Origin: Bacteroidales bacterium
GTDB lineage: Bacteria > Bacteroidota > Bacteroidia > Bacteroidales > UBA10428
Length of the DNA: 64,000 nt
Assembly: GCA_041737175.1 (NCBI GenBank)
Contig: JBGSSF010000034.1
Location: forward strand, 143,606-207,605
Direction of reading: 5' to 3'
Below the pieces are notes generated by a model. The model was given only the letters and a program-made list of their open reading frames with translations, did no database searches and was not told where the DNA came from. A program made the translations under genes and the position numbers. Shown here piece after piece: positions 1,774 to 64,000 of this stretch (position 1 is its first letter; the number at the start of each line of letters is the position of its first letter).

Positions 1774-1991
1774 GGTACCATTCTATTTTGATTTGGTTTC
1801 TACCATAGTCCCGGATATCAATTCAAAGATAGTACATACCTCAATGCCTGAATAAGAGTAATCAGGAAATATTCTATTCGTAAACAGAAAATCCAGAATA
1901 TTCATAAGTGTACAAATTATAAGTGAATATATTCTTGTTAAAGCTCATAATTGATGTATTTTTAATCAAGCAATTACTAAACCTGAATCAA

Positions 1992-2951
1992 ATGAACAAA
2001 CTTTCTCGCAAGGATTTTATCCGTTTATCCATGGCCTCTTCCCTGGCCATACCCTTCATTGGATGTACCGGAAAATCAGCCGGAGCAGGGAAATCGGAAG
2101 ATCAACAATCAATAGTAAAAACCTATACAGATACCATCGGTCTTCAGGTTTTTGCATTCAGGGATATGCTTGTGAAGGACGCTCCGAATCTGTTTAAATC
2201 ATTTGCCTCGGCCGGCGTCAAATCCGTTGAGTTTTTCAATCCTGCCACTTTGAATGAATATGTCCCCATTGTTAAAGATTGCGGAATGCTTCCTTTAAGC
2301 ACGCATTTTATGCCGGGATATGTTACCGGAAACTGGGAAATGGCCAGGACAATGAACATGGCACCTCCGGACAATTACCACTATGAGAACATCATTGAGG
2401 ACTGCGTGAAGAACGGCATAAAATATATGGGCATTGCCATTCTGCTTGAGGAAGACAGGCCTACCCTGGACGACTACAAACGGTTTGCTGAAAAATTCAA
2501 TGCATGTGGCGAAAAGAGTAAATCTGCCGGCATTCAACTATTCTACCACAACCATTCTTTTGAATTTGAACCCATGCAGGGAACTACACCCTATGACGAA
2601 ATGCTGAAGATCTTCGACAAAGAACTTGTCAAACTTGAGCTGGACGTCTTTTGGATCACCGTAGGCGGACAGGATCCTCTGCTATGGCTTCAGAAAACAG
2701 GGGACAGACTTTTATTTCTTCATATGAAGGACCTGAAGAAAGAATCACAAACAGGCATTTTTAATTTCAATATCCCTGAGGATAGCTATACAGAGCTGGG
2801 TACCGGAATGCTTGATTATAAGGCCATACTGAAGCTTACACGCACGCTGGGGATTCAATATGCTATTGTGGATCAGGACAGCACCCAGATGACGGATAAG
2901 ATAGCCAGTGTAAGGCAGAATTGCGAGTATATTAAATCTCTGGGAATATGA
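1992..2951 (+). CDS. Exported sugar-phosphate isomerase/epimerase (xylose-isomerase-like TIM barrel)
   Basis: The track ORF starts at GTG 1923. An in-frame ATG at 1992 gives MNKLSRKDFIRLSMASSLAIPFIGC, a Tat-like SRKDF motif followed by a lipobox-like Cys. Internal FYHNHSFEF, LELDVFW and LHMKD are typical of the AP-endonuclease-2/xylose-isomerase-like TIM family. Confidence 0.7.
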   Translation: MNKLSRKDFIRLSMASSLAIPFIGCTGKSAGAGKSEDQQSIVKTYTDTIGLQVFAFRDMLVKDAPNLFKSFASAGVKSVEFFNPATLNEYVPIVKDCGMLPLSTHFMPGYVTGNWEMARTMNMAPPDNYHYENIIEDCVKNGIKYMGIAILLEEDRPTLDDYKRFAEKFNACGEKSKSAGIQLFYHNHSFEFEPMQGTTPYDEMLKIFDKELVKLELDVFWITVGGQDPLLWLQKTGDRLLFLHMKDLKKESQTGIFNFNIPEDSYTELGTGMLDYKAILKLTRTLGIQYAIVDQDSTQMTDKIASVRQNCEYIKSLGI

Positions 2952-4363
2952 TACGATACTTTTCATCTGTTTTTTTGACAATTCTTTTGCCTTTCAACGT
3001 TGCTTCCCAAGTCAATTGGGTATCAACTACCCATGATCACCCATGGGTACAGCAGCAGGCCAGGTTTGCCAGACCATCGAAAACAACTGCTGATGTGACT
3101 ATCCTGACTGATGGACCGGAACAGCTTATTGACGGTTTTGGAATCTGTTTCAACGAATTAGGCTGGATGGCTCTGTCGGACCTTGATGAGCAGGGGCGTG
3201 AGAACATACTTGAAAAACTTTTCGATCCGAAGGAAGGTCTGAAACTCAACATTTGCCGGATGCCCATCGGCGCCAATGACTATGCCCGGAATTACTATTC
3301 ATTAAACGATTCGGTGAATGATTTTGAAATGAAGCATTTCAATATTGAGCGTGACAGAACCATATTGATTCCTTTTATAAAGGCAGCCATGAAATACAGG
3401 CCTGATCTAAAGGTATGGGGTTCCCCCTGGTGCCCTCCATCCTGGATGAAAACAAACAGCCATTATGCATGCCGGCCCGGTTCGGATAATGGACTTCTGC
3501 CACAACAGGAGGGGAAGGAAGGCGTCACGCAATTCCGCATGGAACCTGCCTTCCTGAATGCCTATGCCCTGTATTTTGAAAATTATATCGATTCTTATCG
3601 GAATGAAGGAATTCACCTCACCGGCATTCATGTACAGAATGAAATGAACTCCTGCCAGAACTTCCCTTCATGCATTTGGACTGCCACTGATCTGGGACAT
3701 TTTATCGGTAAATACCTGGGTCCCAAGTTAAAAACCAGTTTTCCCGATGCGGAAATATGGTACGGGACGTATGAGAGACCTTCAGTGGAAAATATTGACA
3801 CCATCATGCAGAATCCTGGAATAGCCAGATACATTACCGGTGTCAGCTTCCAGTGGGCCGGTAAGCAGGCCATACCGGGAGTGCATGCAAAATATCCCGA
3901 TCTTAAACTTATGCAGTCTGAAACCGAATGCGGCAACGGATCGAACGACTGGAAAGCTGCAGAATACACCTTTTCGTTGATGAAGCATTATTTTGAGCAC
4001 GGCATTGGTGTGTATTCATTCTGGAATAGTGTGCTCGATGAAACAGGCAAAAGCATGTGGGGCTGGAAGCAGAATTCCATGATTACCGTCGACAGTAAAA
4101 CCAAAGAAGTGAAGTATAATCCTGAATTTTACCTGCTGAAACACTTCAGTTATTTTATTCACCCTGGAGCAAGAAAGCTAAAAACTACCGGTAAGAATGA
4201 TGAACTGCTTGCATTTTTGAATCCGGACAACAACCTTATCGTGATTATTGAGAATAAGGAGGATGCTGCCCGAGAAATACGGATGAATATTGGTAAAAAG
4301 AACCTGAATGTTATTCTGGAACCTCATTCATTCAATACATTCAGGTGGAAGGTTGTGAAATAA
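2948..4363 (+). CDS. Glycoside hydrolase family 30 (glucosylceramidase / beta-1,6-glucanase-like)
   Basis: 471 aa with signal peptide MIRYFSSVFLTILLPFNVASQ. Motifs are GFGICFNELGW, RMPIGANDY, GSPWCPPSWMK and HVQNEMN (compare the QNEP acid/base region). Its ATG overlaps the upstream stop (ATGA). Confidence 0.8.
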   Translation: MIRYFSSVFLTILLPFNVASQVNWVSTTHDHPWVQQQARFARPSKTTADVTILTDGPEQLIDGFGICFNELGWMALSDLDEQGRENILEKLFDPKEGLKLNICRMPIGANDYARNYYSLNDSVNDFEMKHFNIERDRTILIPFIKAAMKYRPDLKVWGSPWCPPSWMKTNSHYACRPGSDNGLLPQQEGKEGVTQFRMEPAFLNAYALYFENYIDSYRNEGIHLTGIHVQNEMNSCQNFPSCIWTATDLGHFIGKYLGPKLKTSFPDAEIWYGTYERPSVENIDTIMQNPGIARYITGVSFQWAGKQAIPGVHAKYPDLKLMQSETECGNGSNDWKAAEYTFSLMKHYFEHGIGVYSFWNSVLDETGKSMWGWKQNSMITVDSKTKEVKYNPEFYLLKHFSYFIHPGARKLKTTGKNDELLAFLNPDNNLIVIIENKEDAAREIRMNIGKKNLNVILEPHSFNTFRWKVVK

Positions 4364-4380
4364 TACTTCCAACCGGCATT

Positions 4381-5526
4381 TCACCTCACTATAGTTACAT
4401 TTCCCATAAAACTACCCCCGTCGGTATACCGGATCCCGAACTGATAGATGCCCATGGGCAGTGCCTGCCCTGAAATGGTTGTACCGCTCCAGGTGACAGG
4501 CTCGCTGCCGGTAAATCGCACTGAATAAACCATTGTGCCAACTTTGGAAAAGATATTGAGCGTTCCGCTGCGGTCCGGGTCAATGGGAATTGTCCATATC
4601 TCTCCTCTTGACGGGGCAAATACCGCCTGGTAAAGGTTTGCGCAATCAACAGAACGGATAAGCGCTAAGCCGATGCGGCTGATGCAATTGTTGGCGTCCC
4701 TGGCGTACAGGGCATAACTGCCCGGATACAAACCGGAAAAAAGTGATGTGTCCCTGAAGTTGACCTGGCTCATGGAGAAGGTATACGGAGCCTGGCCACC
4801 GGTCAACGATTGCCTGTCGATGGCAATGCTGCCGGTTGGTTTGTCGTCGCAGCTTTCGGATTCAAGGAAACTGCCTTCTATTTTTACCTTGCGGCAATCC
4901 GGTTTTCCAGTTGCTTCCGGTTTTACCGGAATCGGTTTATTTTCAGAATAGGGCTCAGAAACCTGCTTTTCAGTTTTGGGTACCTCGTTTTTAACCGGTA
5001 CAGCGGTTTGGATCTCTTCCTTTATGAGGACTGTATCAACCTGAAACGTTCTATCCGGAATTCTATCATCCGCGGGATTCTGATCAGCTGAAGGTGCCCT
5101 CAAACTTTTGATGCTGGCGGTTTCCTGGTTTCTTTTAGATAACGGAACCTCCTGATAGGTAACAGCCATGGAATCCTCAAGCACGGATATGGGTTGTTCA
5201 TTGCTATTTTTTTCTCTGTTCAGCCAGCCTGGCTGCATCCACAGAAGAATTACCCCGATCATCAGTCCACCCAAACCAAAACCAGTTATTCGTTTTATCC
5301 TCTTTGTAATTATTGTCTTTCCCAGGTGAATGGATTTCAGCTCACTTTTTATGTTCAGGTATGCCCCGTCGGTGATGATATCCCTCAACTGCCTGTGCAA
5401 TTCAACTTTGTGGGCAAAATCCGGATCTTCTTCCAGTTTTTTCCGGAAGCTTACCCTTTCATTCGCCGGCAGATCGCCGTTTAGAAAGCTCTCAATCCAT
5501 TCGTTTATTTCAATGTCCTGCTTCAT
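4381..5526 (-). CDS. Anti-sigma-like single-pass membrane protein with extracytoplasmic SprB-type repeat and T9SS type-B CTD-like end
   Basis: 381 aa, with a 4-nt overlap with the ECF sigma gene upstream. The N-terminal ~75 aa are helical, followed by KRIKR and one hydrophobic helix (ITGFGLGGLMIGVILLW), then a P/K/E-rich linker. The extracytoplasmic part reads C..GSIAID..GGQAPYTFS..YPGSYALYARDANNC and ends ...LPMGIYQFGIRYTDGGSFMGNVTIVR. Confidence 0.6.
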   Translation of the reverse strand: MKQDIEINEWIESFLNGDLPANERVSFRKKLEEDPDFAHKVELHRQLRDIITDGAYLNIKSELKSIHLGKTIITKRIKRITGFGLGGLMIGVILLWMQPGWLNREKNSNEQPISVLEDSMAVTYQEVPLSKRNQETASIKSLRAPSADQNPADDRIPDRTFQVDTVLIKEEIQTAVPVKNEVPKTEKQVSEPYSENKPIPVKPEATGKPDCRKVKIEGSFLESESCDDKPTGSIAIDRQSLTGGQAPYTFSMSQVNFRDTSLFSGLYPGSYALYARDANNCISRIGLALIRSVDCANLYQAVFAPSRGEIWTIPIDPDRSGTLNIFSKVGTMVYSVRFTGSEPVTWSGTTISGQALPMGIYQFGIRYTDGGSFMGNVTIVR

Positions 5527-6098
5527 AGTTTCTGCAAGGCGCTTTTTAATCCCGGTCTTTCTTCAATATAAGTGATCAGTTTCTGCATGCACTTGTATTT
5601 TCGTGTTTTAACAGCATTTTCAGTGCTGAATTTCATCTTTTCACATATCTCCGTATTTTTCATCCTGTAAAAGATGGAATACCTTAACAGCTCCTCGCAC
5701 CGTTCTCCCAGCTTTGTAAGTAATTCTGATACAGCTTCCTCTCTTTCCCTGGTTATGATAAGATCCATGATATTCCCGCCGGTATCGGAGAAATCGACAT
5801 ATTCCGGAAGTACAATCTCCCGGCTTTCTTTTCGTAACCTGTTAAGCCAAAGATTCTTGCTTACAGTGAAAATAAAAGCGCCGATATCGTATTTCGGATC
5901 AAATTTATCCTCCTTCACATATCTGTAAAATACCATGATGCTGTCCTGAAAAATATCAAAAGCGGCATCCTGATTTCCTGAATTATGCTTTATGTATCTG
6001 CTCACCTTTGGAAAGTATGTATTATAGATGAATTTCAAAACGTCCTTGTCTTGACCGGACTTTAAAGCCTGTAATATTTCATCATCAGAATACTTCAT
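5523..6098 (-). CDS. ECF-type RNA polymerase sigma-70 factor
   Basis: 191 aa. A region-2-like segment (FDIFQDSIMVFYRYV...FIFTVSKNLWLNRLRK) and a region-4 HTH-like segment (MKNTEICEKMKFSTENAVKTRKYKCMQKL) are present. It is translationally coupled to the downstream membrane protein. Confidence 0.85.
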   Translation of the reverse strand: MKYSDDEILQALKSGQDKDVLKFIYNTYFPKVSRYIKHNSGNQDAAFDIFQDSIMVFYRYVKEDKFDPKYDIGAFIFTVSKNLWLNRLRKESREIVLPEYVDFSDTGGNIMDLIITREREEAVSELLTKLGERCEELLRYSIFYRMKNTEICEKMKFSTENAVKTRKYKCMQKLITYIEERPGLKSALQKL

Positions 6099-6205
6099 GA
6101 ATCATGAAGGGCGTTTGCAGTATCTACAAATTAGAGAATAAAAGGTAACCTCTTTTTGAAAAATACTTACTTTTAATCTTTCTTGGGTAAGTTAGTAAAT
6201 TGTAA

Positions 6206-7147
6206 ATGTCTTTGCCAAAAATAATCAATACATGGAATGAAATCCGTTACCGGATTGTTGTTTTGAGCAGATCAATCCGGGCAGGCATTATTCTCTCGTT
6301 CCTGTTTTTTACCTGTCAAGCCCAGACAACCAATAAAAACTACCCTGTACAGTCGAGCCAGTTCATGTATGCTTATTCGCTCATCAATCCATCAAGCATT
6401 GGTATTAACTCAAATTATGAGGTTCTGATGGGATATCAGCGACCCGTTTCCGGTTTCACAGGCTTATCAACGTATTTCTGCAACCTTAGTTTTGTACCCT
6501 ATAAAATCAGGGCATCGGCAAAAAGCAAAAACATCGCCGGTCTGCGGTTTTTTAACGACAATGAAGGAGCCTATATCAACAGGATGCGGTTTTATGGTAT
6601 GTATTCTTTTCATACCAGAATTAACAGTCGGCTCAGTTTTGCGGGCGGCATTGATTTTGGGGGAATGAATTTCTCGGTAAAAGCTACCCCCACCACCGAA
6701 GGGGCATCTGTATTTAAAGCAGATGCCAATACCGGCATTTGGGTATATAATGAAAAATTTCATTTTGGGTTTTCGGTGAATCAGCTTTTCAACAGCGTTT
6801 TTCAGCCTATTGACGAAAGAACTGTGCTTCCCACGCATCTCAATCTGACGGGTTCATACACCATTGTAAAGAATGATAATGTGGAATTGACACCCCATCT
6901 GCTGATTACCTATCCCTATTATTCAAAAACCGACATTCAGGCTGGTCTTCACGGATTATTCCTCGAAAAAATCATTGCTTCAGTAAGCTGGAATCATAAG
7001 ACCAGCGTATCGGCCATGCTGGGGGTGAATGATCTGACCATTTATAAAAGCAATATGAATATCATTCTGTCCTATGTTACCAATACAGGGAAGGCCGCTC
7101 TCGGTATCAACAAGCTGGAGATATCCATTTTATATTCTTTTCAATGA
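6206..7147 (+). CDS. PorP/SprF-family type IX secretion system membrane protein
   Basis: 313 aa. After the signal peptide comes AQ...QSSQFMYAYSLINPSSIG then GYQRPVSGF, which is the family N-terminal pattern (Q.sQy.. ..NPA..G ... YR.QW.G). The rest is rich in alternating beta-strand-like segments and ends in an aromatic residue. Confidence 0.75.
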   Translation: MSLPKIINTWNEIRYRIVVLSRSIRAGIILSFLFFTCQAQTTNKNYPVQSSQFMYAYSLINPSSIGINSNYEVLMGYQRPVSGFTGLSTYFCNLSFVPYKIRASAKSKNIAGLRFFNDNEGAYINRMRFYGMYSFHTRINSRLSFAGGIDFGGMNFSVKATPTTEGASVFKADANTGIWVYNEKFHFGFSVNQLFNSVFQPIDERTVLPTHLNLTGSYTIVKNDNVELTPHLLITYPYYSKTDIQAGLHGLFLEKIIASVSWNHKTSVSAMLGVNDLTIYKSNMNIILSYVTNTGKAALGINKLEISILYSFQ

Positions 7148-7209
7148 GCAAGGGGTTACTTTTCAGTTTCTGTTGTGAAGTTCAGTTGTAATCAATAAAC
7201 TAACTTCAT

Positions 7210-8205: not shown

Positions 8206-8244
8206 ATGGAATAATTAGTAAATTTGAATGAACTAAAACCTGCA

Positions 8245-9582
8245 ATGGTATCCTTTCTCAGGCATATTATCCCGGCTTTTTGCCTTTTTGGTGTGATTGA
8301 CCTGTCAGCCCAGGATGTTCCCTGGCTCACACCTTCCGCATCCCTGAATGCAGTGCCGCTGACTATCAATTGCATTCCCCGGGCAGATGGTCAGTCCCTG
8401 CGTGAAGGTGATTACATTGGGATATTTAACGAGCAGAACAAATGCTTTGGACTTGCCCGGTGGAAGGATACCATTACTTTTAATATAACAGTCTATGGAT
8501 CTGATGGTACAATAGATGGATTTAACACCGGAGAAAAACTTACAATGAAGATCTGGCTCAGCGATGAGGATTGTATCCTGGAAAAACTATCCCAGGTAGC
8601 TTCCGATAATCCGCTGGTTTTCTCCAATGCAGTAACCAACCGGATCAATGTGCTTGATTTTGAACGGCTGTCTGTTTCCTATCCTACGGAAGGTCATTGT
8701 ATGAATGAAGGGATCCTGTTACCTGATATGAATTATAGGACGGATGATTTGCATTTTACCTCAACATCAGGCATAAACCTGAATCTTACCTCAGGAGCCG
8801 TTGATCCGTTGAGAAGTTCACCTGGCACATACGCGATCGAAATGAATTCGGGAACCTGTTTAACCAATAATAAGCTGACCCTGACATTGAAAGATTTTCC
8901 GCGCTTTTCATCTCCTCTTCCGGATACGGTATTGTGCGGGGAAGAAACTCTGGAGATAGCTTTGACCAATGAGTATGCTTCCGTTCAGTGGTCAACCGGG
9001 GCAACCACACCCCGGGTGAATCTGGAGGAACCGGCAACCGTGTGGTATTACGTCACAAACAGCCAGGGATGTGGCAACGCCGACACTTTCGTCATCAGGC
9101 AGATTGCCATTAAAAAACTTGAATATATCGTGGACAAGGCGGATTGTTACCAGAAGGGAAGGATCACGATCGGTGAAAGTTATATTGAAAACGGAAGGGC
9201 ACCTTACAGTTACATATTGAGCAATCAGCTTGAAAATCGTGAACAGGATGACCTGAGTGATGTTCCGGAGGGGGTGTACACGATGGAGGTGAGGAATGCC
9301 AACGGATGTATTCTCCGGCACGCGCAAAAGATCATCGTAGAAAAGGATTGTCTGAATGATGTTCCCGTTTTTACACCCAATGATGACGGGCAGGATGACA
9401 GGTATTTCATCAACCTTGAAGGGAAAATTAGAATTTTTGACAGGAATGGTACACTAAAGCGAAGGTTAACTGCCCCATGTTATTTCGATGGCAATGATGA
9501 ATCAGGCAGCCCGCTTCCCATGGGCGTATACATGGTAACCTCCGAAAAGGGAGAGAAAGTGGAATTGACCATAATCAGGTAA
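8245..9582 (+). CDS. Secreted protein with SprB-type repeat and T9SS type-B (gliding-motility-associated) C-terminal sorting domain
   Basis: The track ORF starts at TTG 8224. ATG 8245 gives the signal peptide MVSFLRHIIPAFCLFGVIDLSAQ. The C-terminus reads VPVFTPNDDGQDDRYFINLEGKIRIFDRNGT...LPMGVYMVTSEKGEKVELTIIR, matching the type-B CTD consensus (FTPNGDG.ND...I.NR.G...G.Y.Y...G.v.l.R). It is preceded by C..GRITIG..GRAPYSYI..GVYTMEVRNANGC. Confidence 0.8.
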   Translation: MVSFLRHIIPAFCLFGVIDLSAQDVPWLTPSASLNAVPLTINCIPRADGQSLREGDYIGIFNEQNKCFGLARWKDTITFNITVYGSDGTIDGFNTGEKLTMKIWLSDEDCILEKLSQVASDNPLVFSNAVTNRINVLDFERLSVSYPTEGHCMNEGILLPDMNYRTDDLHFTSTSGINLNLTSGAVDPLRSSPGTYAIEMNSGTCLTNNKLTLTLKDFPRFSSPLPDTVLCGEETLEIALTNEYASVQWSTGATTPRVNLEEPATVWYYVTNSQGCGNADTFVIRQIAIKKLEYIVDKADCYQKGRITIGESYIENGRAPYSYILSNQLENREQDDLSDVPEGVYTMEVRNANGCILRHAQKIIVEKDCLNDVPVFTPNDDGQDDRYFINLEGKIRIFDRNGTLKRRLTAPCYFDGNDESGSPLPMGVYMVTSEKGEKVELTIIR

Positions 9583-30532: not shown

Positions 30533-31441
30533 ATGGCAATAGTTTTAAAGAACAGTATTCTTTGCCTGACTATTGAAGAACCAGGTCAGGTTTATAGTAA
30601 TTCACGGTTCGATTGGACTGGAAATATTTCTCAGGTTTTATTTGAGAACAAATTTATTTTCTGTTCGGTAGAGACAGCCAAAGGATTTGATCTTAAACGG
30701 CATGGTCAGGGTTTGTATAACGAATTTGGAATAACCAAACCGATAGGATACGAAGATTGTTTCGTGGGTGAGAAATTCCCTAAAATAGGCGTTGGACTGC
30801 TAACCAGAAAAAGTAACGATGCCTATCATTTTCTTGAAGCATACGAGATAGATCCTTTTGAAATTCAAATAGAAAAGGGAGAGGAATGGATAAAGTATAC
30901 GGTTTTTCCAAAAGATTGCAGAGGGTACAGTACAAAACTAATCAAGAAGATCAAACTCTCCGGTAATTCATTTACCCTTGATTATGAGTTGGAAAATACA
31001 GGAACAAGGAAAATACAAACGAATGAATACTGTCATAATTTTATGGCCGTTAACAGGTCGGATATTAATGAACACTATACGCTTAGGGTGCCATGCAAAA
31101 TAATTAAACCGTCATTTATGTTCGAAGCATTAAACCCTGAGAATGCCGTTGTGCTGAATGCAAACTCTGTAAATTTTAAATTCTCACCTGAAAAAGATTT
31201 TTTCTTTAGCCCTTTGACTGAATTTCAATCGGAAAATGGGGAATGGGAAATTACCCATGACGGCATGGGTATCGGAATGAAAGAAAGTACCGATTTCGTG
31301 CCTGAAATGATGAATGTATGGGGATGCAAACATGTACTCAGTCCGGAATTGTTCATTGGCATCGATCTGGATCCCGGACATAAACTAAAATGGCGGAGAA
31401 CCTACAAGTTCTATTATCTATTGCCGGATAGGCAACTGTGA
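30533..31441 (+). CDS. Hypothetical cytoplasmic protein (possibly mutarotase-like beta-sandwich)
   Basis: 302 aa with no signal peptide. It is tightly linked to the flanking genes (18-nt and 27-nt gaps). I recognise no diagnostic motif with confidence. Confidence 0.4.
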   Translation: MAIVLKNSILCLTIEEPGQVYSNSRFDWTGNISQVLFENKFIFCSVETAKGFDLKRHGQGLYNEFGITKPIGYEDCFVGEKFPKIGVGLLTRKSNDAYHFLEAYEIDPFEIQIEKGEEWIKYTVFPKDCRGYSTKLIKKIKLSGNSFTLDYELENTGTRKIQTNEYCHNFMAVNRSDINEHYTLRVPCKIIKPSFMFEALNPENAVVLNANSVNFKFSPEKDFFFSPLTEFQSENGEWEITHDGMGIGMKESTDFVPEMMNVWGCKHVLSPELFIGIDLDPGHKLKWRRTYKFYYLLPDRQL

Positions 31442-31468
31442 AATAATTAACCAATAATACGGAACCTG

Positions 31469-34400
31469 ATGGCTGAAAATAAATTATTGATCGGTAAGAA
31501 TGTATTCCAAACATGGGACAAAGAAGTCAAAGGTAAATTTGTGACAATTGATGGGGAAGATTTCTATGAAATCAGGAATTTTGACTCGATGTTGCCTTTT
31601 TTTATGAGTCTTGCAAGCGATTCTGACCACTGGATGTTTATTTCCAGCACCGGTGGTTTGTCAGCAGGAAGGATCAACCCCGAAAGCGCACTTTTCCCGT
31701 ATTATACAGATGATAAACTTCAGGAATCAGCAGAGACAACCGGGAGCAAATCAATTTTCAGGGTATTGTCAGAAGATAAAGAATATTTATGGGAGCCTTT
31801 TTCTGAGAGGTATGACGGTGTGTACAAAACCGAAAGGAACCTGTATAAAAATACTTGCGGCAATAAGCTCATTTTCGAAGAAAACAACCTCGATTTGGGA
31901 TTGTCCTTTCGGTATGGCTGGATGAACTCTGATCATTTCGGTTGGATCAGGAAAAGTATCCTGGTGAACAAATCGGTGACATCAGTCAGGGTGGAACTAA
32001 TGGATGGCCTGCAAAACCTGTTGCCATATGGAGTTGAGAGGTTTATGCAAAATCAGTTTTCCACCTTGCTCGACGGTTATAAAAAATCCGAGCTTGTGAA
32101 GGAATATTCGCTCGGATTGTTCCGGCTCGAATCTATTCCTGTTGATAAAGCCGAACCAAGCGAAGCACTAAAGGTTACAACTGTTTGGACTTGCGGCCTC
32201 GAAAAAAATATTTTTCTGTTAAGTTCAAGACAACTGGGACAGTTCAGAAAGGGAAAAAAAGTTGTTGAAGAGCAGGAATCAAAAGGAGTGAAAGGGGCAT
32301 TCTTTGCAAACGCCAAAATTAAACTTAATGCCGGCGAAAGCAAGGTATGGTATTTTGCTGCCGAGGTCAACCAGGATTCGGTGAAAGTGAATAACCTGAT
32401 TGATTTTTTGTCCAGGACCAAGGATAAAATGGATGCGTTAGAAAAGAATATTCAGGAAGGCACCCTTAACCTGAAAGTTATTGTTGCCGATGCAGATGGT
32501 ATTCAGAATTCATCCGACAAACTTGTGGTTTCAAGACACTTTTCGAATGTTTTGTTCAATGTCATGCGGGGGGGCATATTCAGCGAGGGTTATTCAATTG
32601 ATAAAAGTGATTTCCTCAAGCATGTCAAACACTTTAATAAACAAGTGCTGGAAGGGCACCGAAAACTCTTCGATCAGTTACCTGACACCCTCAAATATGA
32701 AGAGCTCGATAAAATAATAACCAAAGAGGGTGATGAAGATCTTCATCGTCTGTTTCTTGAATATCTGCCGCTTACCTTCAGCCGAAGGCATGGCGATCCA
32801 AGCCGCCCGTGGAACCTTTTTTCAATAAACATTAAAGATGTAAGCGGCAATAAGCTGCTATATTACCAGGGTAATTGGCGCGATATTTTCCAGAATTGGG
32901 AGGCATTGGCATTGTCTTATCCCGGTTATATAAGCGGTATGATCGCCAAGTTCGTGAATGCTTCATCGGCCGATGGATACAATCCGTATCGTGTAACCCG
33001 CGATGGAATAGACTGGGAAGTGCCTGAACCAGGTAATCCGTTCTCAAATATCGGCTATTGGGGCGATCATCAGATAATTTATCTGCTAAAATTGCTGGAG
33101 GTATCGGAGAAATATTTTCCGGGACATCTTAATTCATGGCTGGTCAAGGATATGTTTGCATATGCCAATATTCCTTACCGGATTAAATCCTATCAGGAGA
33201 TTGTTGATAACCCGCATGATTCTATTGACTTTGATTTTGATGCACATCATAAAATAGATGAAGATGTGGCCCGGATAGGAGCCGATGGCAAATTACTTCT
33301 TGATAAATCGGGTTTGGTATTTAAGGTTAATCTTACCGAAAAAATTCTGGCCCCGCTGTTATCCAAGCTTAGCAATTTTATTCCCGAGGCGGGCATTTGG
33401 ATGAATACCTTGCGTCCCGAATGGAACGATGCCAACAATGCACTGGTCGGGTATGGAGTATCCATGGTTACACTCTATTATATGAGGCGGTTCATTCATT
33501 TTATTGCCGGGTTGTTGTCGGCATTTTCTCATACAAGCCTTGAGATTACAGAGGAAATGGCAGACTTTCTTTCGGCAATTGATGATGCCCTGAAAGACCA
33601 TGAATCATTGCTCAACGAGGGATTCAATGACACGCAGCGTAAGCTGTTGGCAGATCGACTTGGCAATGCAGGAAGTGAATTCAGAGCTAAAGCATACAAG
33701 GGATTCTCCGGTAAAAAGGCATCTGTAAAGAAGCAGTACCTCATTAAATTTCTCAAAACAGCACAAGCTTTTATAGATCAGAGTATTGCTGCAAATAAAA
33801 GAACCGATAAACTCTACAATGCTTATAATCTATTGACTATCGGCGACAACGGCTTTTCAATCAGGCATTTGTATGAGATGCTTGAAGGACAGGTTTCAGT
33901 GCTGAGTTCCGGCAAACTTTCACCCGAAGAGTCGCTGGAAGTGCTCGATACCTTGAGAAATAGCAAGTTGTACCGTGCGGATCAGGAAAGCTATATTCTG
34001 TATCCGGACAAGAGATTGCCATGGTTTCTTGAAAAGAATATAGTACCCCCTGAAGATGTTAAGAGAATTCCACTGTTGTCGAAATTGATTGAAATGGGCG
34101 ATACAAGTATAATTGCCAGGGATACCAGGGGCCAGTACCATTTTAATGGTACATTCAATAATGCAGGTTTTCTGAAAAAAGCCTTGCAGAAGCTGACTGA
34201 TAGTGCAGTTGTAAAAGTTATGCCGGCGGAGATGAAACAGGTAATGGCGGTATATGAGAAAATATTTGATCATCAATCTTTTACTGGTAGGTCAGGTACT
34301 TTCTACAAGTATGAAGGGCTTGGTTCGATATACTGGCATATGGTTTCAAAGCTATTGCTCGCGGTTGGTGAAAACATTGAACTAGCCAGAAAAGGGGGTG

Positions 34401-34894
34401 CCACCGAAGATATCCTGCGTAAGCTGGCGGATCATTATGCAGAGATTAAAGAAGGCATTGGAGTTCATAAAACGCCTGATAAATATGGGGCATTCCCGAT
34501 TGATCCATACTCCCATACCCCCCGGATGGCAGGGGTGCAGCAGCCGGGTATGACCGGTCAGGTGAAAGAAGATGTTATCAGCCGGTTCTTTGAGCTTGGC
34601 CTGGTTGTAAATAACGGACAAATATCATTTAATCCCGTCGTTCTGAAAAAGAATGAATATATTCTCCCGGGAACAAAAGATTCCCATGGCCATTCTGTGC
34701 CGCACCTTTATTTTACTTACTGCAAAGTTCAGGTAATTTACCTGCTTGACGGTAAAGATGGAATAGACCTGGTTTTTAACAATGGGAATTCTTTAAATAT
34801 CCAGGGATCTGCTATTGACAAAGTAAACAGCCATTCTATTTTTAATCGGGAAGGAAAAATAAGTAAAATACATGTTCATCTGACCCTTGAATAA
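31469..34894 (+). CDS. Large uncharacterised protein, putative GH94-superfamily-like glycan phosphorylase/hydrolase
   Basis: 1141 aa, cytoplasmic, with no signal peptide. WRDIFQNW (32876-32899) and RPEWNDANNAL (EWND at 33419-33430) resemble my recollection of the RDxxQD and DWND motifs of GH94-type (alpha/alpha)6 phosphorylases. The size is similar to GH149/GH161 beta-1,3-glucan phosphorylases. The family assignment is unverified. Confidence 0.35.
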   Translation: MAENKLLIGKNVFQTWDKEVKGKFVTIDGEDFYEIRNFDSMLPFFMSLASDSDHWMFISSTGGLSAGRINPESALFPYYTDDKLQESAETTGSKSIFRVLSEDKEYLWEPFSERYDGVYKTERNLYKNTCGNKLIFEENNLDLGLSFRYGWMNSDHFGWIRKSILVNKSVTSVRVELMDGLQNLLPYGVERFMQNQFSTLLDGYKKSELVKEYSLGLFRLESIPVDKAEPSEALKVTTVWTCGLEKNIFLLSSRQLGQFRKGKKVVEEQESKGVKGAFFANAKIKLNAGESKVWYFAAEVNQDSVKVNNLIDFLSRTKDKMDALEKNIQEGTLNLKVIVADADGIQNSSDKLVVSRHFSNVLFNVMRGGIFSEGYSIDKSDFLKHVKHFNKQVLEGHRKLFDQLPDTLKYEELDKIITKEGDEDLHRLFLEYLPLTFSRRHGDPSRPWNLFSINIKDVSGNKLLYYQGNWRDIFQNWEALALSYPGYISGMIAKFVNASSADGYNPYRVTRDGIDWEVPEPGNPFSNIGYWGDHQIIYLLKLLEVSEKYFPGHLNSWLVKDMFAYANIPYRIKSYQEIVDNPHDSIDFDFDAHHKIDEDVARIGADGKLLLDKSGLVFKVNLTEKILAPLLSKLSNFIPEAGIWMNTLRPEWNDANNALVGYGVSMVTLYYMRRFIHFIAGLLSAFSHTSLEITEEMADFLSAIDDALKDHESLLNEGFNDTQRKLLADRLGNAGSEFRAKAYKGFSGKKASVKKQYLIKFLKTAQAFIDQSIAANKRTDKLYNAYNLLTIGDNGFSIRHLYEMLEGQVSVLSSGKLSPEESLEVLDTLRNSKLYRADQESYILYPDKRLPWFLEKNIVPPEDVKRIPLLSKLIEMGDTSIIARDTRGQYHFNGTFNNAGFLKKALQKLTDSAVVKVMPAEMKQVMAVYEKIFDHQSFTGRSGTFYKYEGLGSIYWHMVSKLLLAVGENIELARKGGATEDILRKLADHYAEIKEGIGVHKTPDKYGAFPIDPYSHTPRMAGVQQPGMTGQVKEDVISRFFELGLVVNNGQISFNPVVLKKNEYILPGTKDSHGHSVPHLYFTYCKVQVIYLLDGKDGIDLVFNNGNSLNIQGSAIDKVNSHSIFNREGKISKIHVHLTLE

Positions 34895-53329: not shown

Positions 53330-54247
53330 ATGAAGCGGAATATTTTTCAAAAACAGGATGACAGTGAAATTGCCAAGCCTGTAGGACCTGAAACCGTTGC
53401 TGATGAAAGCGATAAGTCGACTTCAGTTCATGTGGATTCAGATAAGCCGTCAGATATCATAAATCTTGTCAATATCAGCCAGGTTTACACAGATCATAGT
53501 CCTCCTAACATCGTTTTTAAAGATTTCAACCTGGATATAAAGGACATTAAAACCCGGGGACAATTTATTACCATCATGGGTAAATCGGGTTGTGGAAAAT
53601 CCACTTTGCTCCGCTATATTTCGGGGCTACAGGAACCGACTTCGGGAGATGTATATATTTATGGAAAGAAGCGGACGGATAAGGATAGAATTCCCATGGT
53701 TTTTCAGCAATATACCTCATTTGAATGGAAAACGGTGCTGCAAAACGTTGCTCTGCCGCTGATTTTGAAGGGTGTGCCCAAGGAGGAAGCCCATGAAAAG
53801 GCCATGAACATGATAGAAATTGTTGGATTGGCCGGGCATGAAAACAAATGGGCCAAGTATCCGATCCTGTCCGGAGGGCAATTGCAACGGGTTGCCATTG
53901 CGAGGAATCTTGTCGTAAATCCGCAGATCTTATTAATGGACGAACCTTTTGGAGCATTAGATACCATAACCCGCAAACAAATACAGGTTTTTCTGCGTTC
54001 CATATTCGAAAACGCCAAAATCGATCCGACCGTAATCTTTGTAACTCACTCCGAAAGTGAGGCTGTTTTCCTATCCACGGATATTTTCATTCTCGATTCA
54101 GGTCCGGCTACCGTCAGACACCATTATAAAATTGATTTGCCACAAAACCGTGATGACTCAATAAGGTATTCCACCGAGTTTACTGATTACGTAAACAAAC
54201 TGGGCTCGCTACTCGAAGATCTGAAAAAGGAAACCAGGAAGGATTAA
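53330..54247 (+). CDS. ABC transporter ATP-binding protein (NitT/TauT-type)
   Basis: 305 aa. Walker A is GKSGCGKST, the signature LSGGQLQRVAIARNL and Walker B LLMDEPFGALD. There is an acidic/Ser-rich N-terminal extension of about 45 aa. Confidence 0.9.
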   Translation: MKRNIFQKQDDSEIAKPVGPETVADESDKSTSVHVDSDKPSDIINLVNISQVYTDHSPPNIVFKDFNLDIKDIKTRGQFITIMGKSGCGKSTLLRYISGLQEPTSGDVYIYGKKRTDKDRIPMVFQQYTSFEWKTVLQNVALPLILKGVPKEEAHEKAMNMIEIVGLAGHENKWAKYPILSGGQLQRVAIARNLVVNPQILLMDEPFGALDTITRKQIQVFLRSIFENAKIDPTVIFVTHSESEAVFLSTDIFILDSGPATVRHHYKIDLPQNRDDSIRYSTEFTDYVNKLGSLLEDLKKETRKD

Positions 54248-60269: not shown

Positions 60270-63200
60270 TTAACCACCCGGGTCCGGTTCTTCGGATACT
60301 GCAGGTTGTTCCTCTTTTTTACCGAATATGGATTTTAAATACCTCCTCCAGAGTTCACCTACGGTATTGAACTCCTCTTTGTAAAATACCCCGAATCCCT
60401 GGGTATAGGGATTATCATAAAGCATGTCGTTGTTGATGTGATTGTAGGTCTTCAGCCTGAATTTGCCGTTTGGAACAAGCTTATAATCAATGTCAAATTC
60501 ACCGACAATATTGTCAGAAGCACTGGCTGCAGCATTGGTGGCCACATCAACACTTCCGTTGATGGTAAGCCGGTCATTGAACAACTGCGTGGATAGTGCC
60601 ACCTGGACCTCGTCGCTCTTCATTTCACGGTTTGTCCGGTAATTCACGCCGACATCCACATCGCTGTTGATCTGTGATAACCAGTTACTCAATTGATTGG
60701 AAAGGAATTCACTGGCATTTACTCCCGCGGCACTGGAGTATGGCGAAGCCGTGCCGCCGGGCTGGGATTGCAATCCTGACCGGGTGGTACTCAGAACGAA
60801 CCGGTTGAGGGTCAGCAGTGAAATGAACTGTTTGTTCAATTCCTCGCTTGAGCCGATAGCGCTGGCCACCATCAACCGGGTTGATTCATCGGCATTCGGA
60901 AGATAAATATCATATTTTACATTCGGTGACATCAGCTTGCCTGTCATCGTCACGCGGTCATGCACATTGATTTTCCTGTCATCAGTGGTGCCCAGCAAAT
61001 CTTTCAGCGATGCTTTGGTAGCGTAATTGGCAACAATATCAATAGCGGCATCCAGGGGATCTCCGTTCCAGCGGATGGTACCGCCGGGTTCAATGGTGAG
61101 TTTCTTGTTGATGATATTCTGCAGGGTGAACAAATAGTCTCCCTTTTCGATGGTGTATTCGCCAAACATAATGAAATCCCCCGAGGTGCTGATTTTCATA
61201 TCCAGATTGCCATTGCCGTTTCCCTTGATGATGTCCCCGAGTTTTGGATCGAAAATGATCTGGACTTCTGCATCAGGTGTGACGGTAAGTCCGAAATTGA
61301 TCTGCATGCCCGATGATTTAACCTGATAATCAATAATATCCAAATCATCCGGTTGTTTATCGTACAGATTGACAACAGTAATAAATTGGTATTCATCCAG
61401 TTCACCTGTATTTGAAAGGGGTAAACTGATGGTGGTGTTCTTATTTGTGGTTGCCTGAATATCCATGGTGATATTTTTAGGAGGTCCGGCGATTTTAATA
61501 TCACCGGTAGCATACGCGGTTCCGTAGAAAACCTGGTTATCAGCCTGGGTGGTATTCATGCAAAGAAAATTCTGGAATCGGATGGCAAGATCGAGCACAA
61601 AATCTTTCAGATACCTGTTGCGGATGGCTCCGGCGAGATATGCTGAATTTCCTTTCGGATCATATATCCTGATATCTTTAAAGTAAATGTTGTTATTTTC
61701 TATTTGCACTTTATCTGTGAAATTATAACGGGTCTGGAGGTAATTGACTGTAAAAGCAGTTTTCTGAAGATCAAGCTCACCGTTTAACAAAGGCCGGGCA
61801 AGAGTACCTGTTAGTTTTGCTTTGCCTGACGCCGCTCCCCGGAGGTCGCTGAATATCACCTTAACATAGGGATTGAAAAGGTTCAGTCTTAGTTTATCAA
61901 GTTTCAAATTGAAATCCAGCTTGCCTTCATGGGTTGGAAAGTATTCACCTTCCAAATCAATGGTTTTTAAATTGTCGCGCATGGCAAGTGCCATAAGATT
62001 CACTGACTTACGGTCATTGTTCCATTTCGAGCTGATTTGCGCGCTGCCAAGCATTTCATTATTGATCATCAGGCTGTCAATTTTCAACAAGCTGGTGAAA
62101 AGGATATTGCTGTATATGTCTGAAACCGAGGCATTGCCATTTAGTATCCCGCCCAGCTTATAGCCTGAGGTGGCAGCAATTCCATTCAGATTGCCCAGGT
62201 TAAAACGATGGAACAGAATATTCATATTATCTGAGGGAACTTCAGAAAGGACGCCTTCCAATTTGAAATATTCATTCCCATGGTTGATGACAAGATTGTC
62301 GAACGTGATTTTCGAGCTATCAATCATGATTTTCCCCGGTTGAATCGTCCACAGCGTATCATTGGTGACGAAACTGGCCGGCAAAAGCCCGATATCAAAA
62401 TGCGGGAACCGGCTTCCTCCCTTTCTGGTAACTCTGCCCACTGCGCTGATATCACCTTTGTGCTGCAAATCCTGCCAATTATTCCATCGGATCTTCAAAG
62501 ATGCTTCATCCTTTCCGACATTGGAATAGAGCGTGAAGTTATCCAGCGTGATCTTTTTTCCCAGAATCAGATTCTTGCCACCTGCTTCAATATCCAGGGA
62601 GTCATTATTTCCTGTCAGGATTACATTTAGATTATTCCAGGTGGTACCTTTTGCAATGAGCTTTGAGGTTTGCAAACTCATATTTATATTCTGATTATCA
62701 GGCAGGTAGGTAAGTTTTACCGTGCTGTTTTCAGCAATGCCATATTCAGGAAGAAAAAAATCCAGCAGAGGTTTGGCATTTTTAATGATTGCTGACAGCT
62801 GAAGGCTATGGTCGGGAGTGGCTGTCTTCAATACCGAAGAGTCTGCAAGTGAAGGAAGGTAGGTCAGGATGAAATACCTGACGGCGTCGCCAATTTTTGT
62901 CAGCTCATAATTGCCTTTCATATCAGCGTCTAAGAAATCTGATCGGAGGGTAATGTTACTGTAACCGGATGCGTTTTCTGACAGAACGCTGAAATCATAG
63001 ATTTGCAATTGTTTGTCTTTTTTTATAAATAGCGAATTCAGAAGTTTGACCTCACCATTGAGTGTATTGACAGAGTTGCCCCTGGCATTGGCGATCAGGT
63101 AAAAGGATGCCCTGAAATCCGGATCGGAATTTTCTAAATTCAAAGCGTAAAGATTTGCATCAGTTATATTCGCAGTGAAGTCAAATGCAGCCACGGAATC

Positions 63201-64000
63201 GGATAAATTAACCTTTCCCAGGAATTCAAGTTCCGCATTGGGGTCGTGCATATTTACTGATCCGTTAAAAGTTTTGTCATCCAGGTTGCCGGAAAGGCTG
63301 ATGTTGGTATATTTGTATTGCTTTAGTTCAACGCTTTGTATCAAACCTTTCAGAGACGCCTTGATCGATTTACCAGCGAGGGTAGCACCATTGATCGTGG
63401 CAGAAAGATTAATCTGTCCAACATTTTTAGATGCGTCCAGAAGATACCCAAGATCGAAATCCCTGGTAATTAGTTTTCCCTCAAAACTAACGTAATTGGA
63501 TGTATCCGGCCTGAAGAGCAGGTCGGTACTGAGTATTCCAATATCGGTGTTAAACTGGCCATAGGTCACGAAATCGTTGAAAAAACCGGTGAAGTTTCCA
63601 GTGAAAGTAACATTGCCAAGTTTTTCAAATTGTCCCGGAAGTTTAAGTCTTTTATTTCCGGGAAGTTCAAGGCTTTTTATATCTGATGCAGATGTGGTAA
63701 AATCATCGATATCGGCCAGGATAAATGTTTCACGGATATCAGGCAGACCTTCAAAATTTAACTCCCCTGCAAGCCTTGAACTATTGCCATAGGTGATATC
63801 AATTTTTCTCCCCTTCAGGTTGCTTACAGGTCCGGTTACCTTACCCGTGAAAGAAATTAGCTGGTTAGTATTCCGGAAAGCAGGTGCGAAATATCCTAAG
63901 TCATGCAGATTTACTTTTGAGTCCACCAGATCGATCCTTAACCTGACAAACCGGGTAAACGAATCTGCTTTAAACTGGTCCCAGTTATCGAAACGCAAGG
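60270..64000 (-). CDS. tamB: Translocation/assembly module protein TamB (N-terminus beyond the window edge)
   Basis: More than 1242 aa are open to the window end. The sequence is a very long beta-rich repetitive (N/G/D/L/T) run. The C-terminus has the DUF490-like pattern (LSTQLFNDRLTINGSVD ... DIDYKLVPNGKFRLKTYNH). Confidence 0.8.
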   Translation of the reverse strand, partial: LRFDNWDQFKADSFTRFVRLRIDLVDSKVNLHDLGYFAPAFRNTNQLISFTGKVTGPVSNLKGRKIDITYGNSSRLAGELNFEGLPDIRETFILADIDDFTTSASDIKSLELPGNKRLKLPGQFEKLGNVTFTGNFTGFFNDFVTYGQFNTDIGILSTDLLFRPDTSNYVSFEGKLITRDFDLGYLLDASKNVGQINLSATINGATLAGKSIKASLKGLIQSVELKQYKYTNISLSGNLDDKTFNGSVNMHDPNAELEFLGKVNLSDSVAAFDFTANITDANLYALNLENSDPDFRASFYLIANARGNSVNTLNGEVKLLNSLFIKKDKQLQIYDFSVLSENASGYSNITLRSDFLDADMKGNYELTKIGDAVRYFILTYLPSLADSSVLKTATPDHSLQLSAIIKNAKPLLDFFLPEYGIAENSTVKLTYLPDNQNINMSLQTSKLIAKGTTWNNLNVILTGNNDSLDIEAGGKNLILGKKITLDNFTLYSNVGKDEASLKIRWNNWQDLQHKGDISAVGRVTRKGGSRFPHFDIGLLPASFVTNDTLWTIQPGKIMIDSSKITFDNLVINHGNEYFKLEGVLSEVPSDNMNILFHRFNLGNLNGIAATSGYKLGGILNGNASVSDIYSNILFTSLLKIDSLMINNEMLGSAQISSKWNNDRKSVNLMALAMRDNLKTIDLEGEYFPTHEGKLDFNLKLDKLRLNLFNPYVKVIFSDLRGAASGKAKLTGTLARPLLNGELDLQKTAFTVNYLQTRYNFTDKVQIENNNIYFKDIRIYDPKGNSAYLAGAIRNRYLKDFVLDLAIRFQNFLCMNTTQADNQVFYGTAYATGDIKIAGPPKNITMDIQATTNKNTTISLPLSNTGELDEYQFITVVNLYDKQPDDLDIIDYQVKSSGMQINFGLTVTPDAEVQIIFDPKLGDIIKGNGNGNLDMKISTSGDFIMFGEYTIEKGDYLFTLQNIINKKLTIEPGGTIRWNGDPLDAAIDIVANYATKASLKDLLGTTDDRKINVHDRVTMTGKLMSPNVKYDIYLPNADESTRLMVASAIGSSEELNKQFISLLTLNRFVLSTTRSGLQSQPGGTASPYSSAAGVNASEFLSNQLSNWLSQINSDVDVGVNYRTNREMKSDEVQVALSTQLFNDRLTINGSVDVATNAAASASDNIVGEFDIDYKLVPNGKFRLKTYNHINNDMLYDNPYTQGFGVFYKEEFNTVGELWRRYLKSIFGKKEEQPAVSEEPDPGG

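Follow-up and report, generated by a model that had tools for sequence, protein, structure and literature searches.

A probable ECF anti-sigma factor that ends in a diverged type-B secretion unit, encoded in a conserved Bacteroidales cassette

How Bacteroidota match the synthesis of type IX secretion system (T9SS) cargo to secretion capacity is largely unknown. To our knowledge the sole circuit described is PorA-PorXY-SigP, which comes from one species and works through a free secreted protein with a type A C-terminal domain (CTD). We analysed a stretch of 64,000 nucleotides (nt) from a Bacteroidales bacterium (contig JBGSSF010000034.1), called the window here, within which all coordinates count. 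On its reverse strand a gene for an extracytoplasmic function (ECF) sigma factor is followed by a gene for an anti-sigma-like protein that ends in a diverged relative of the type-B CTD unit, and a PorP/SprF-family gene lies divergent from the pair. The arrangement suggests an ECF sigma/anti-sigma module in which both the sensor domain and the outer-membrane partner are new.

PorA's CTD binds the PorY sensor kinase in the periplasm, and signalling by PorA persists when the protein is artificially anchored at the inner membrane (PMC12152298). The PorA/PorXY-SigP circuit of Porphyromonas gingivalis resembles the present locus in using a T9SS CTD as a periplasmic signalling moiety that ultimately controls an ECF sigma factor (PMC7712824, PMC12152298). 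It differs in that PorA, with its type A CTD, is secreted as a protein of its own and acts on the histidine kinase PorY and the response regulator PorX, which stabilise SigP, with no anti-sigma factor involved, whereas here a type-B-like CTD is naturally fused in cis to a probable anti-sigma head, and a PorP/SprF gene is its partner.

A type-B CTD protein binds a PorP/SprF-like protein that is cognate to it and usually adjacent (PMC9143113, PMC12618676), and complex predictions for published cognate pairs reach an ipTM above 0.8 (PMC12618676). As in the pairs SprB-SprF, Fjoh_3952-Fjoh_3951 and PG1035-PorP, the protein studied here has a C-terminal unit homologous to TIGR04131 tails with a SprB-like repeat before it, and a PorP/SprF gene is adjacent. 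Unlike the cargo of those cognate cargo/shuttle pairs, it has no cleavable signal peptide and no passenger, it is predicted to be held by an N-in inner-membrane anchor, the FTPNGDGxND signature is lost and the profile scores fall below cutoff.

FecA-FecR-FecI and the Bacteroidetes SusC-like transducer systems share with the locus an outer-membrane beta-barrel gene beside the genes for an ECF sigma factor and a single-pass, N-in anti-sigma factor. As in those systems, the periplasmic part of the anti-sigma-like protein is placed to contact an outer-membrane protein, and autoregulation together with a dedicated target operon is predicted. The partner here, however, belongs to the PorP/SprF family of T9SS proteins instead of being a TonB-dependent transducer equipped with a signalling domain; in the periplasm a disordered tether carries a type-B-CTD-like unit, and neither FecR nor DUF4974 is present; and the predicted sigma target is the cargo operon instead of the outer-membrane protein gene. 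The likeness to FlgM and sigma-28, where a secretion signal on an anti-sigma factor makes expression report the state of the secretion machine, is conceptual only: FlgM is soluble, fully secreted and free of a membrane anchor, it leaves by the flagellar type III apparatus, and the sigma family is unrelated. Full-text literature searches returned no description of an anti-sigma factor with a type-B CTD, a SprB repeat or a link to SprF or a T9SS sorting domain. The main text of the ECF classification paper (bioRxiv 10.1101/2019.12.11.873521) names neither SprF nor T9SS, its matches to 'PorP' being to 'Porphyromonas', on SigP and SigH.

The anti-sigma-like gene, the regions of its product and the sigma gene are as follows.

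4381..5526 (-), anti-sigma-like gene, 381 amino acids, stop codon included in the span; open reading frame (ORF) list, at least 30 full-length homologs
5293..5526 (-), residues 1-78, cytoplasmic head of three helices and probable non-zinc anti-sigma domain; AlphaFold2 (AF2) and Foldseek
5227..5292 (-), residues 79-100, single Gly-rich transmembrane (TM) helix (ITGFGLGGLMIGVILLWMQPG), with KRIKR before the helix; hydrophobicity and charge
4897..5226 (-), residues 101-210, disordered P/E/K-rich periplasmic tether; predicted local distance difference test (pLDDT) and composition
4642..4896 (-), residues 211-295, SprB-like repeat (immunoglobulin (Ig)-like beta domain) with C211, C226, C281 and C295; Pfam SprB, phmmer and AF2
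4384..4641 (-), residues 296-381, diverged type-B-CTD-like beta-sandwich ending GNVTIVR; hhalign and TIGR04131
5523..6098 (-), ECF sigma gene, 191 amino acids; TIGR02937 and Sigma70_r2 above cutoffs

A preliminary description of this DNA, made by a model from the letters and an ORF list, had pointed out the anti-sigma-like gene with its CTD-like module, and that observation is confirmed. Its ORFs were recovered at the same positions (4381-5526(-), 5523-6098(-), 6206-7147(+), and a cargo gene ending at 9582), and all of the peptide strings it quoted are present in the ORF translations. The interpretation that it offered is partly supported. With moderate confidence we read the protein as a single-pass, N-in anti-sigma factor that senses in the periplasm only by a tethered, diverged type-B CTD, which would report to the cognate PorP/SprF protein or to the T9SS.

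The ECF sigma protein scored 61.3 with TIGR02937 (cutoff 42.9) and 29.2 with Sigma70_r2 (cutoff 24). Its stop codon and the ATG of the downstream gene have ATGA in common, which is the 4-nt overlap reported before, and the same overlap was seen in 7 related loci with called gene coordinates. The five window proteins were mapped by tblastn onto related loci, giving about 13 distinct cassettes, to which three short contigs with distant anti-sigma homologs (L018-L020, 34–37% identity) were added; loci are cited by such numbers where they must be told apart. In all of these roughly 16 distinct loci, including those of the 34–37% homologs, the gene immediately upstream of the anti-sigma gene encodes an ECF sigma factor, which has 191 amino acids in almost all of the related loci.

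The family of the anti-sigma-like protein comprises at least 30 full-length homologs at 40–83% identity, found in metagenomes and metagenome-assembled genomes (MAGs) and annotated at source only as 'hypothetical protein'. An exhaustive search added further homologs at 34–48% identity. When species-representative genomes were scanned with an N-terminal profile, under a narrow search pattern that does not establish rarity, two loci were returned, both in 'Bacteroidales bacterium' MAGs. All hosts found were uncultured Bacteroidales-like MAGs or metagenome contigs; the source MAGs include GCA_040961665.1, DATEVU01 and JAFGRC01. Across the family the mean identity is 64% for the head (1–78), 56% for the TM segment (79–100), 24% for the linker (101–210), 66% for the SprB-like repeat (211–295) and 65% for the CTD-like domain (296–381). 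M1 is invariant.

The conserved C-terminal module of about 170 residues makes up the whole of the folded periplasmic part after the tether. An AF2 model of the 381-residue protein, built with the family alignment, gave two beta domains (217–290 and 300–379) with pLDDT of about 90. The four invariant cysteines of the family (C211, C226, C281, C295) all lie in the SprB-like repeat and hence in this module, which fits a periplasmic location. For family-level scans a match was taken as E ≤ 0.01 in a member-wise scan of 26 members. SprB matched 26 of 26 (best E 8e-8), while CHU_C and TIGR04131 each matched 22. Homology of residues 211–295 to SprB repeats is clear, although the protein itself stays under the curated SprB cutoff. 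A type A CTD was ruled out, TIGR04183 matching none of the 26.

The relation to type-B tails was examined by profile comparison and in the giant proteins that carry such tails. The last 88 residues of the family were aligned by hhalign with a profile of 57 type-B tails of giant SprB-repeat proteins (98.3%, E 1.3e-14, 77 columns, running to the last residue). An exhaustive phmmer search was dominated by giant multi-SprB-repeat proteins: residues 222–294 matched thousands of them, with tens of repeats aligning there, and several were colinear with residues 222–381 up to their own C-termini. Four of five giant-protein tails tested scored 52–76 bits with TIGR04131; the fifth (P0081) was of type A. 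Together, the hhalign result and the colinear C-termini bear out the claimed homology between the C-terminal module and the type-B CTD unit. In Flavobacterium johnsoniae a functional type-B unit has 150–235 residues (PMC12618676), and the length of the module matches it.

The CTD had also been called degenerate, and the profile alignment agrees: FAPxxGE stands in place of FTPNGDGxND, with a deletion of three residues. As a further change, IYNRWG of the type-B tails has become IFSKxG. Retained are W-x-G, G-x-LP-x-G-x-Y-x-[FY]-x-I and the terminal G-x-VTI-x-[RK]. Judged by its sequence, the module is related to the type-B unit but has diverged from it and does not count as canonical. Each of the five conserved type-B motifs (A–E) of the SprB CTD is needed for secretion or for shuttle recognition (PMC12618676); which of these motifs the altered and kept signatures correspond to is our inference.

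The N-terminal part was examined by modelling and by structure comparison. The 78-residue head was modelled by AF2 with a pLDDT of 92.7 as three helices (2–15, 21–33 and 35–77), and in the full model, with helices over residues 2–97, helix 3 runs on through the TM segment. Of the 27 matches listed by Foldseek for the head against the Protein Data Bank (PDB), 13 were cytoplasmic domains of ECF anti-sigma factors (RslA, RseA, MucA, RsiW), with a root-mean-square deviation of 1.2–2.5 Å over 44–51 residues, and these structures were solved in complexes with sigma factors. The zf-HC2 family matched the head in 4 of 22 members (best E 3.8e-4), with the zinc ligands absent, and NF052375 'anti-sigma factor' matched 1 of 26. 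FecR or DUF4974 domains gave no match in any of 26 members. The head thus resembles ECF anti-sigma domains only weakly; the evidence for an anti-sigma identity of the N-terminus is circumstantial, points one way and makes that identity probable.

The best hydrophobic 19-mer on the Kyte-Doolittle scale covers residues 80–98 and is the sole hydrophobic segment. Its N-side flank has a net charge of +5 and its C-side flank one of -1, and the topology is therefore N-in/C-out. A cleaved signal peptide or a mis-called start is ruled out by conservation of the N-terminus from M1: a conserved domain of 78 residues precedes the segment, which is thus an N-in anchor, as had been proposed. The 'topological paradox' seen in the preliminary description was, however, overstated, since an N-in/C-out anchor brings the CTD into the periplasm, the compartment in which such domains are normally recognised. 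Gly-rich TM helices like this one are typical of site-2 protease substrates.

Between the anchor and the module, residues 98–205 have a pLDDT below 50. The linker (101–210) is rich in E, P, K and V, and its length is kept at 102–147 residues in 31 family members despite the identity of 24%. A tether of about 110 residues can be long enough to span the periplasm to the outer membrane.

This geometry also bears on two readings in which the module is handled by the secretion machinery itself. In one, which we consider unlikely, the tethered CTD is captured by the T9SS translocon together with PorP/SprF, so that the anti-sigma factor transiently spans the envelope and is pulled or clipped by the secretion motor. 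If true, the protein would be a membrane-anchored checkpoint of secretion competence, FlgM-like in logic, dedicated type-B cargo would be made only with a vacant, functional shuttle or translocon, and among Bacteroidota it would be the first example of an anti-sigma factor under the control of a protein-export machine.

In the other, the CTD would be a working export signal: the T9SS would pull it, or export it after the linker is cut, and the membrane stub would then be degraded by intramembrane proteolysis, so that sigma becomes free only with a functional secretion system and shuttle. Such FlgM-like, secretion-coupled release is compatible with the complete type-B unit at the extreme C-terminus, the long, protease-accessible disordered tether of conserved length, the Gly-rich TM helix and the adjacent cognate PorP/SprF gene. 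We nevertheless judge it quite unlikely. The first conserved type-B signature is lost, although every motif was required for secretion of the SprB CTD (PMC12618676). There is moreover no protease gene in the cassette and no evidence of cleavage, and a tethered substrate might jam the translocon.

The docking proposed in our preferred reading, that of a tethered CTD reporting to PorP/SprF or the T9SS, depends on the genes on the other side of the sigma gene, which are listed here with the promoter-like motifs.

6206..7147 (+), gene for a PorP/SprF-family outer-membrane protein, 313 amino acids, divergent from the sigma gene; PF11751 and TIGR03519
7210..8205 (+), gene for a probable lipoprotein, 331 amino acids, LAIAC lipobox, family unknown, predicted sigma target; ORF list
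8245..9582 (+), cargo gene, 445 amino acids, Sec signal, SprB-like repeat and type-B CTD, predicted sigma target; type-B profile match
6124..6150 (-), promoter-like motif copy 1, GGTTACCTTTT-N11-TGTAG, about 25–55 nt 5' of the sigma ATG; conserved
7154..7180 (+), promoter-like motif copy 2, GGTTACTTTTC-N11-TGAAG, between the PorP/SprF stop and the lipoprotein start; conserved

The PorP/SprF protein scored 109.4 bits with PF11751 and 102.1 with TIGR03519 (cutoff 90.55). The link to PorP/SprF, proposed before from adjacency in the window, was strengthened by synteny: the gene is divergent from sigma/anti-sigma in every locus that extends that far, and it adjoins them also in the diverged locus L019. 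The lipoprotein and cargo pair follows PorP/SprF in all loci except L002/L003 (4376-7161), which represent one lineage. There PorP/SprF, sigma and anti-sigma are intact, while lipoprotein, cargo and the second motif are missing; on its strand no gene comes after PorP/SprF, which is abutted by a DUF6807 gene.

Which genes flank the cassette varies from locus to locus, most of them encoding glycoside hydrolases, and the cassette therefore behaves as a unit of its own. Flanks were inspected in the window (1923-4363) and in L001, L002, L004 and L007-L009. As an observation in its own right, glycoside hydrolase or sugar-metabolism genes (GH30, GH2, GH9, GH3, cellulase, fucosidase) flank the cassette in nearly every locus. 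They could indicate a carbohydrate role for the cargo or could just reflect the gene content of these Bacteroidales.

The cargo carries the paralogous unit that had been noticed before: residues 212–361 of the anti-sigma-like protein align with residues 292–436 of the cargo at 30% identity (E 9e-13). The cargo tail matched the type-B profile (98.2%, E 3.2e-14) and keeps FTPNDDGQDD; as a single sequence it scored 24.5 with CHU_C and 18 with TIGR04131, both sub-threshold. Cargo and anti-sigma were the only two ORFs in the 64-kb window with matches to the hidden Markov model (HMM) of the type-B tail. Sequence comparison indicates an old paralogy of the two tails inside the type-B family. ATG 8245 is the start of the cargo, as the preliminary description had it, and the orthologs in 7 loci begin at the equivalent ATG (MVSFLRHIIPAF...), ruling out the TTG at 8224 that begins the longest ORF as an over-extension. 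From ATG 8245 the cargo has a normal Sec signal peptide ending SAQ.

The 331-residue lipoprotein (MKK...LAIAC) gave no significant match in Pfam, NCBIfam or PDB sequences, and only faint RHS/YD-repeat matches. Its orthologs, at 48–88% identity, occur in all complete cassettes, and it is co-conserved with the cargo.

When the divergent intergenic regions were aligned, GGTTACCTTTT was found to be invariant in 13 loci, with TG(T/A)AG following 11 nt later on the sigma strand. The three distant loci L018-L020 have kept the motif upstream of the sigma gene as GGTTAC[C/T]TTTT. The motif was present at L001, L004-L009, L012, L013, L015 and L018-L020 at positions as in the window, and the second copy is conserved in all 11 distinct loci with the lipoprotein gene. 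The consensus of 23 distinct instances is gGGTTACcTTTT-N11-TGaAGt, or GGTTAC-N16-TGAAGT, a spacing typical of ECF promoters. Matches to the motif pattern numbered 3 in the window against 0.10 expected. The third, at 54209-54235(-), has two mismatches, lies inside a plus-strand ORF (53330-54247) and is probably due to chance. The regulon predicted from these positions comprises the sigma/anti-sigma operon (autoregulation), the lipoprotein and the cargo. The motif was not found upstream of PorP/SprF, which presumably is expressed independently of this sigma.

The preferred reading can be put as a sequence of steps. The 78-residue head would sequester the sigma factor encoded by the co-translated ECF gene. 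The periplasmic part, consisting of the disordered tether and one complete, diverged type-B unit without a passenger or a ligand-binding domain, would dock by that unit on the divergently encoded PorP/SprF protein or on the translocon with PorP/SprF, in parallel to or in competition with the neighbouring cargo and its paralogous unit. Docking on PorP/SprF is proposed because of the synteny and the published cognate pairing of CTDs with PorP/SprF proteins. It would alter the stability or conformation of the anti-sigma factor and release sigma, with regulated proteolysis through the Gly-rich TM helix as the most plausible route. Freed sigma would act on two GGTTAC-N16-TGAAGT promoters, its own and that of the lipoprotein/cargo pair, with PorP/SprF expression staying outside its control. 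The net logic would be a matching of cargo synthesis to the availability or occupancy of a dedicated shuttle. The sign of the response could be either, such that docking may activate or silence sigma.

Several results weigh against this reading. As to the head, none of the Foldseek matches was significant, all having E ≥ 0.96 (best E 0.96), and a profile of the N-terminal 100 residues returned only noise among PDB sequences (ferritin, Spy, Pol kappa). The lack of a significant sequence or fold match to anti-sigma families would be expected if the protein were not an anti-sigma factor at all, but an ordinary secreted or membrane-anchored T9SS-related protein that shares the sigma operon, its N-terminus being mis-called or a long signal-anchor. 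An empty homolog search with the 78-residue N-terminal profile points the same way, though it missed even the family members and is uninformative. We regard this as very improbable. The N-terminal 78 residues are as conserved as the C-terminal module (64% against 65–66%), from the invariant M1 onward; the hydrophobic segment starts at residue 80, too far in for a Sec signal peptide; and the overlap with the ECF sigma gene recurs wherever gene coordinates were called. Roughly one in two Foldseek matches is, moreover, an anti-sigma domain, and the sigma-proximal motif indicates one autoregulated sigma/anti-sigma operon.

As to the module, the HMM matches sought in following up the preliminary description all stayed under the curated cutoffs for the single sequence (SprB 22.1 against 28, CHU_C 21 against 27, FlgD_ig 25.6 against 27, TIGR04131 17.1 against 35), so that canonical membership did not hold. 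The curated cutoffs of TIGR04131 and CHU_C were likewise reached by none of the 26 members (best E 9.9e-7 and 1.1e-6). Since FTPNGDGxND is lost and all five motifs are needed in the SprB CTD, docking on PorP/SprF may be lost too; the missing PNGDGxND signature speaks for a unit that binds but is not exported, yet it could equally mean that binding is gone. Nor is the anti-sigma tail closest to the tail of the neighbouring cargo (E 1.1e-8, against 1.3e-14 for generic type-B tails), as a recent local duplication or a common shuttle would lead one to expect, and one shared shuttle specificity is therefore not supported. Further points are that the motif is a predicted ECF promoter, read from its conservation alone, and that T9SS core genes were not seen among 10 other window ORFs sampled, which says little about the whole genome.

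Some of these results would suit a protein that is an anti-sigma factor but whose module is a relic, an Ig-like sensor derived from the SprB repeat and CTD that makes no contact with PorP/SprF or the T9SS. Its ligand would be another, for example the 331-residue lipoprotein, the passenger domain of the cargo, a glycan or a cell-envelope cue. Besides the lost signature and the sub-threshold type-B scores, the single sequence has its top Pfam match, at 25.6 bits, in FlgD_ig, whose Ig-like fold is generic. Run on the whole model, Foldseek returned generic tandem Ig-like domains, among them GhpA, PorU and PorZ, which is consistent with the preferred reading but not discriminating, and glycoside hydrolase genes surround the cassette in most loci. 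A relic is unlikely in our view. The other conserved type-B positions are retained up to the C-terminal G-x-V-T-I-x-R/K, the module is sized exactly as a functional type-B unit with nothing else in the periplasmic part, and PorP/SprF stays beside sigma/anti-sigma even where cargo and lipoprotein are absent, while the flanking hydrolase genes vary by locus.

Two other regions of the window were recorded in passing. Two successive ORFs at 30533-34894(+), with 302 and 1141 amino acids, matched no Pfam family at E ≤ 1e-5. A sugar transporter gene comes just before them and a TonB-dependent receptor-like ORF after them, and part of their span falls where the GC content of the window is lowest (0.38–0.40, 28–32 kb). 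At 60270-63998(-), an ORF of 1242 amino acids with a TamB domain (189 bits) reaches the window edge. It is an envelope-biogenesis gene, unrelated to the anti-sigma finding.

The cassette suggests that, besides the PorA circuit, there is a second and self-contained solution to matching cargo synthesis to secretion, with the secretion signal hard-wired on the anti-sigma factor and a dedicated PorP/SprF shuttle beside it. If true, it would offer a compact module of five genes with a predicted promoter motif that could be transferred to a tractable host. Having lost one signature and kept others, the module would also be a natural probe of how much of a type-B CTD is enough for recognition by the shuttle, in contrast to export, and it would add a new sensor-domain class to those of ECF anti-sigma factors.

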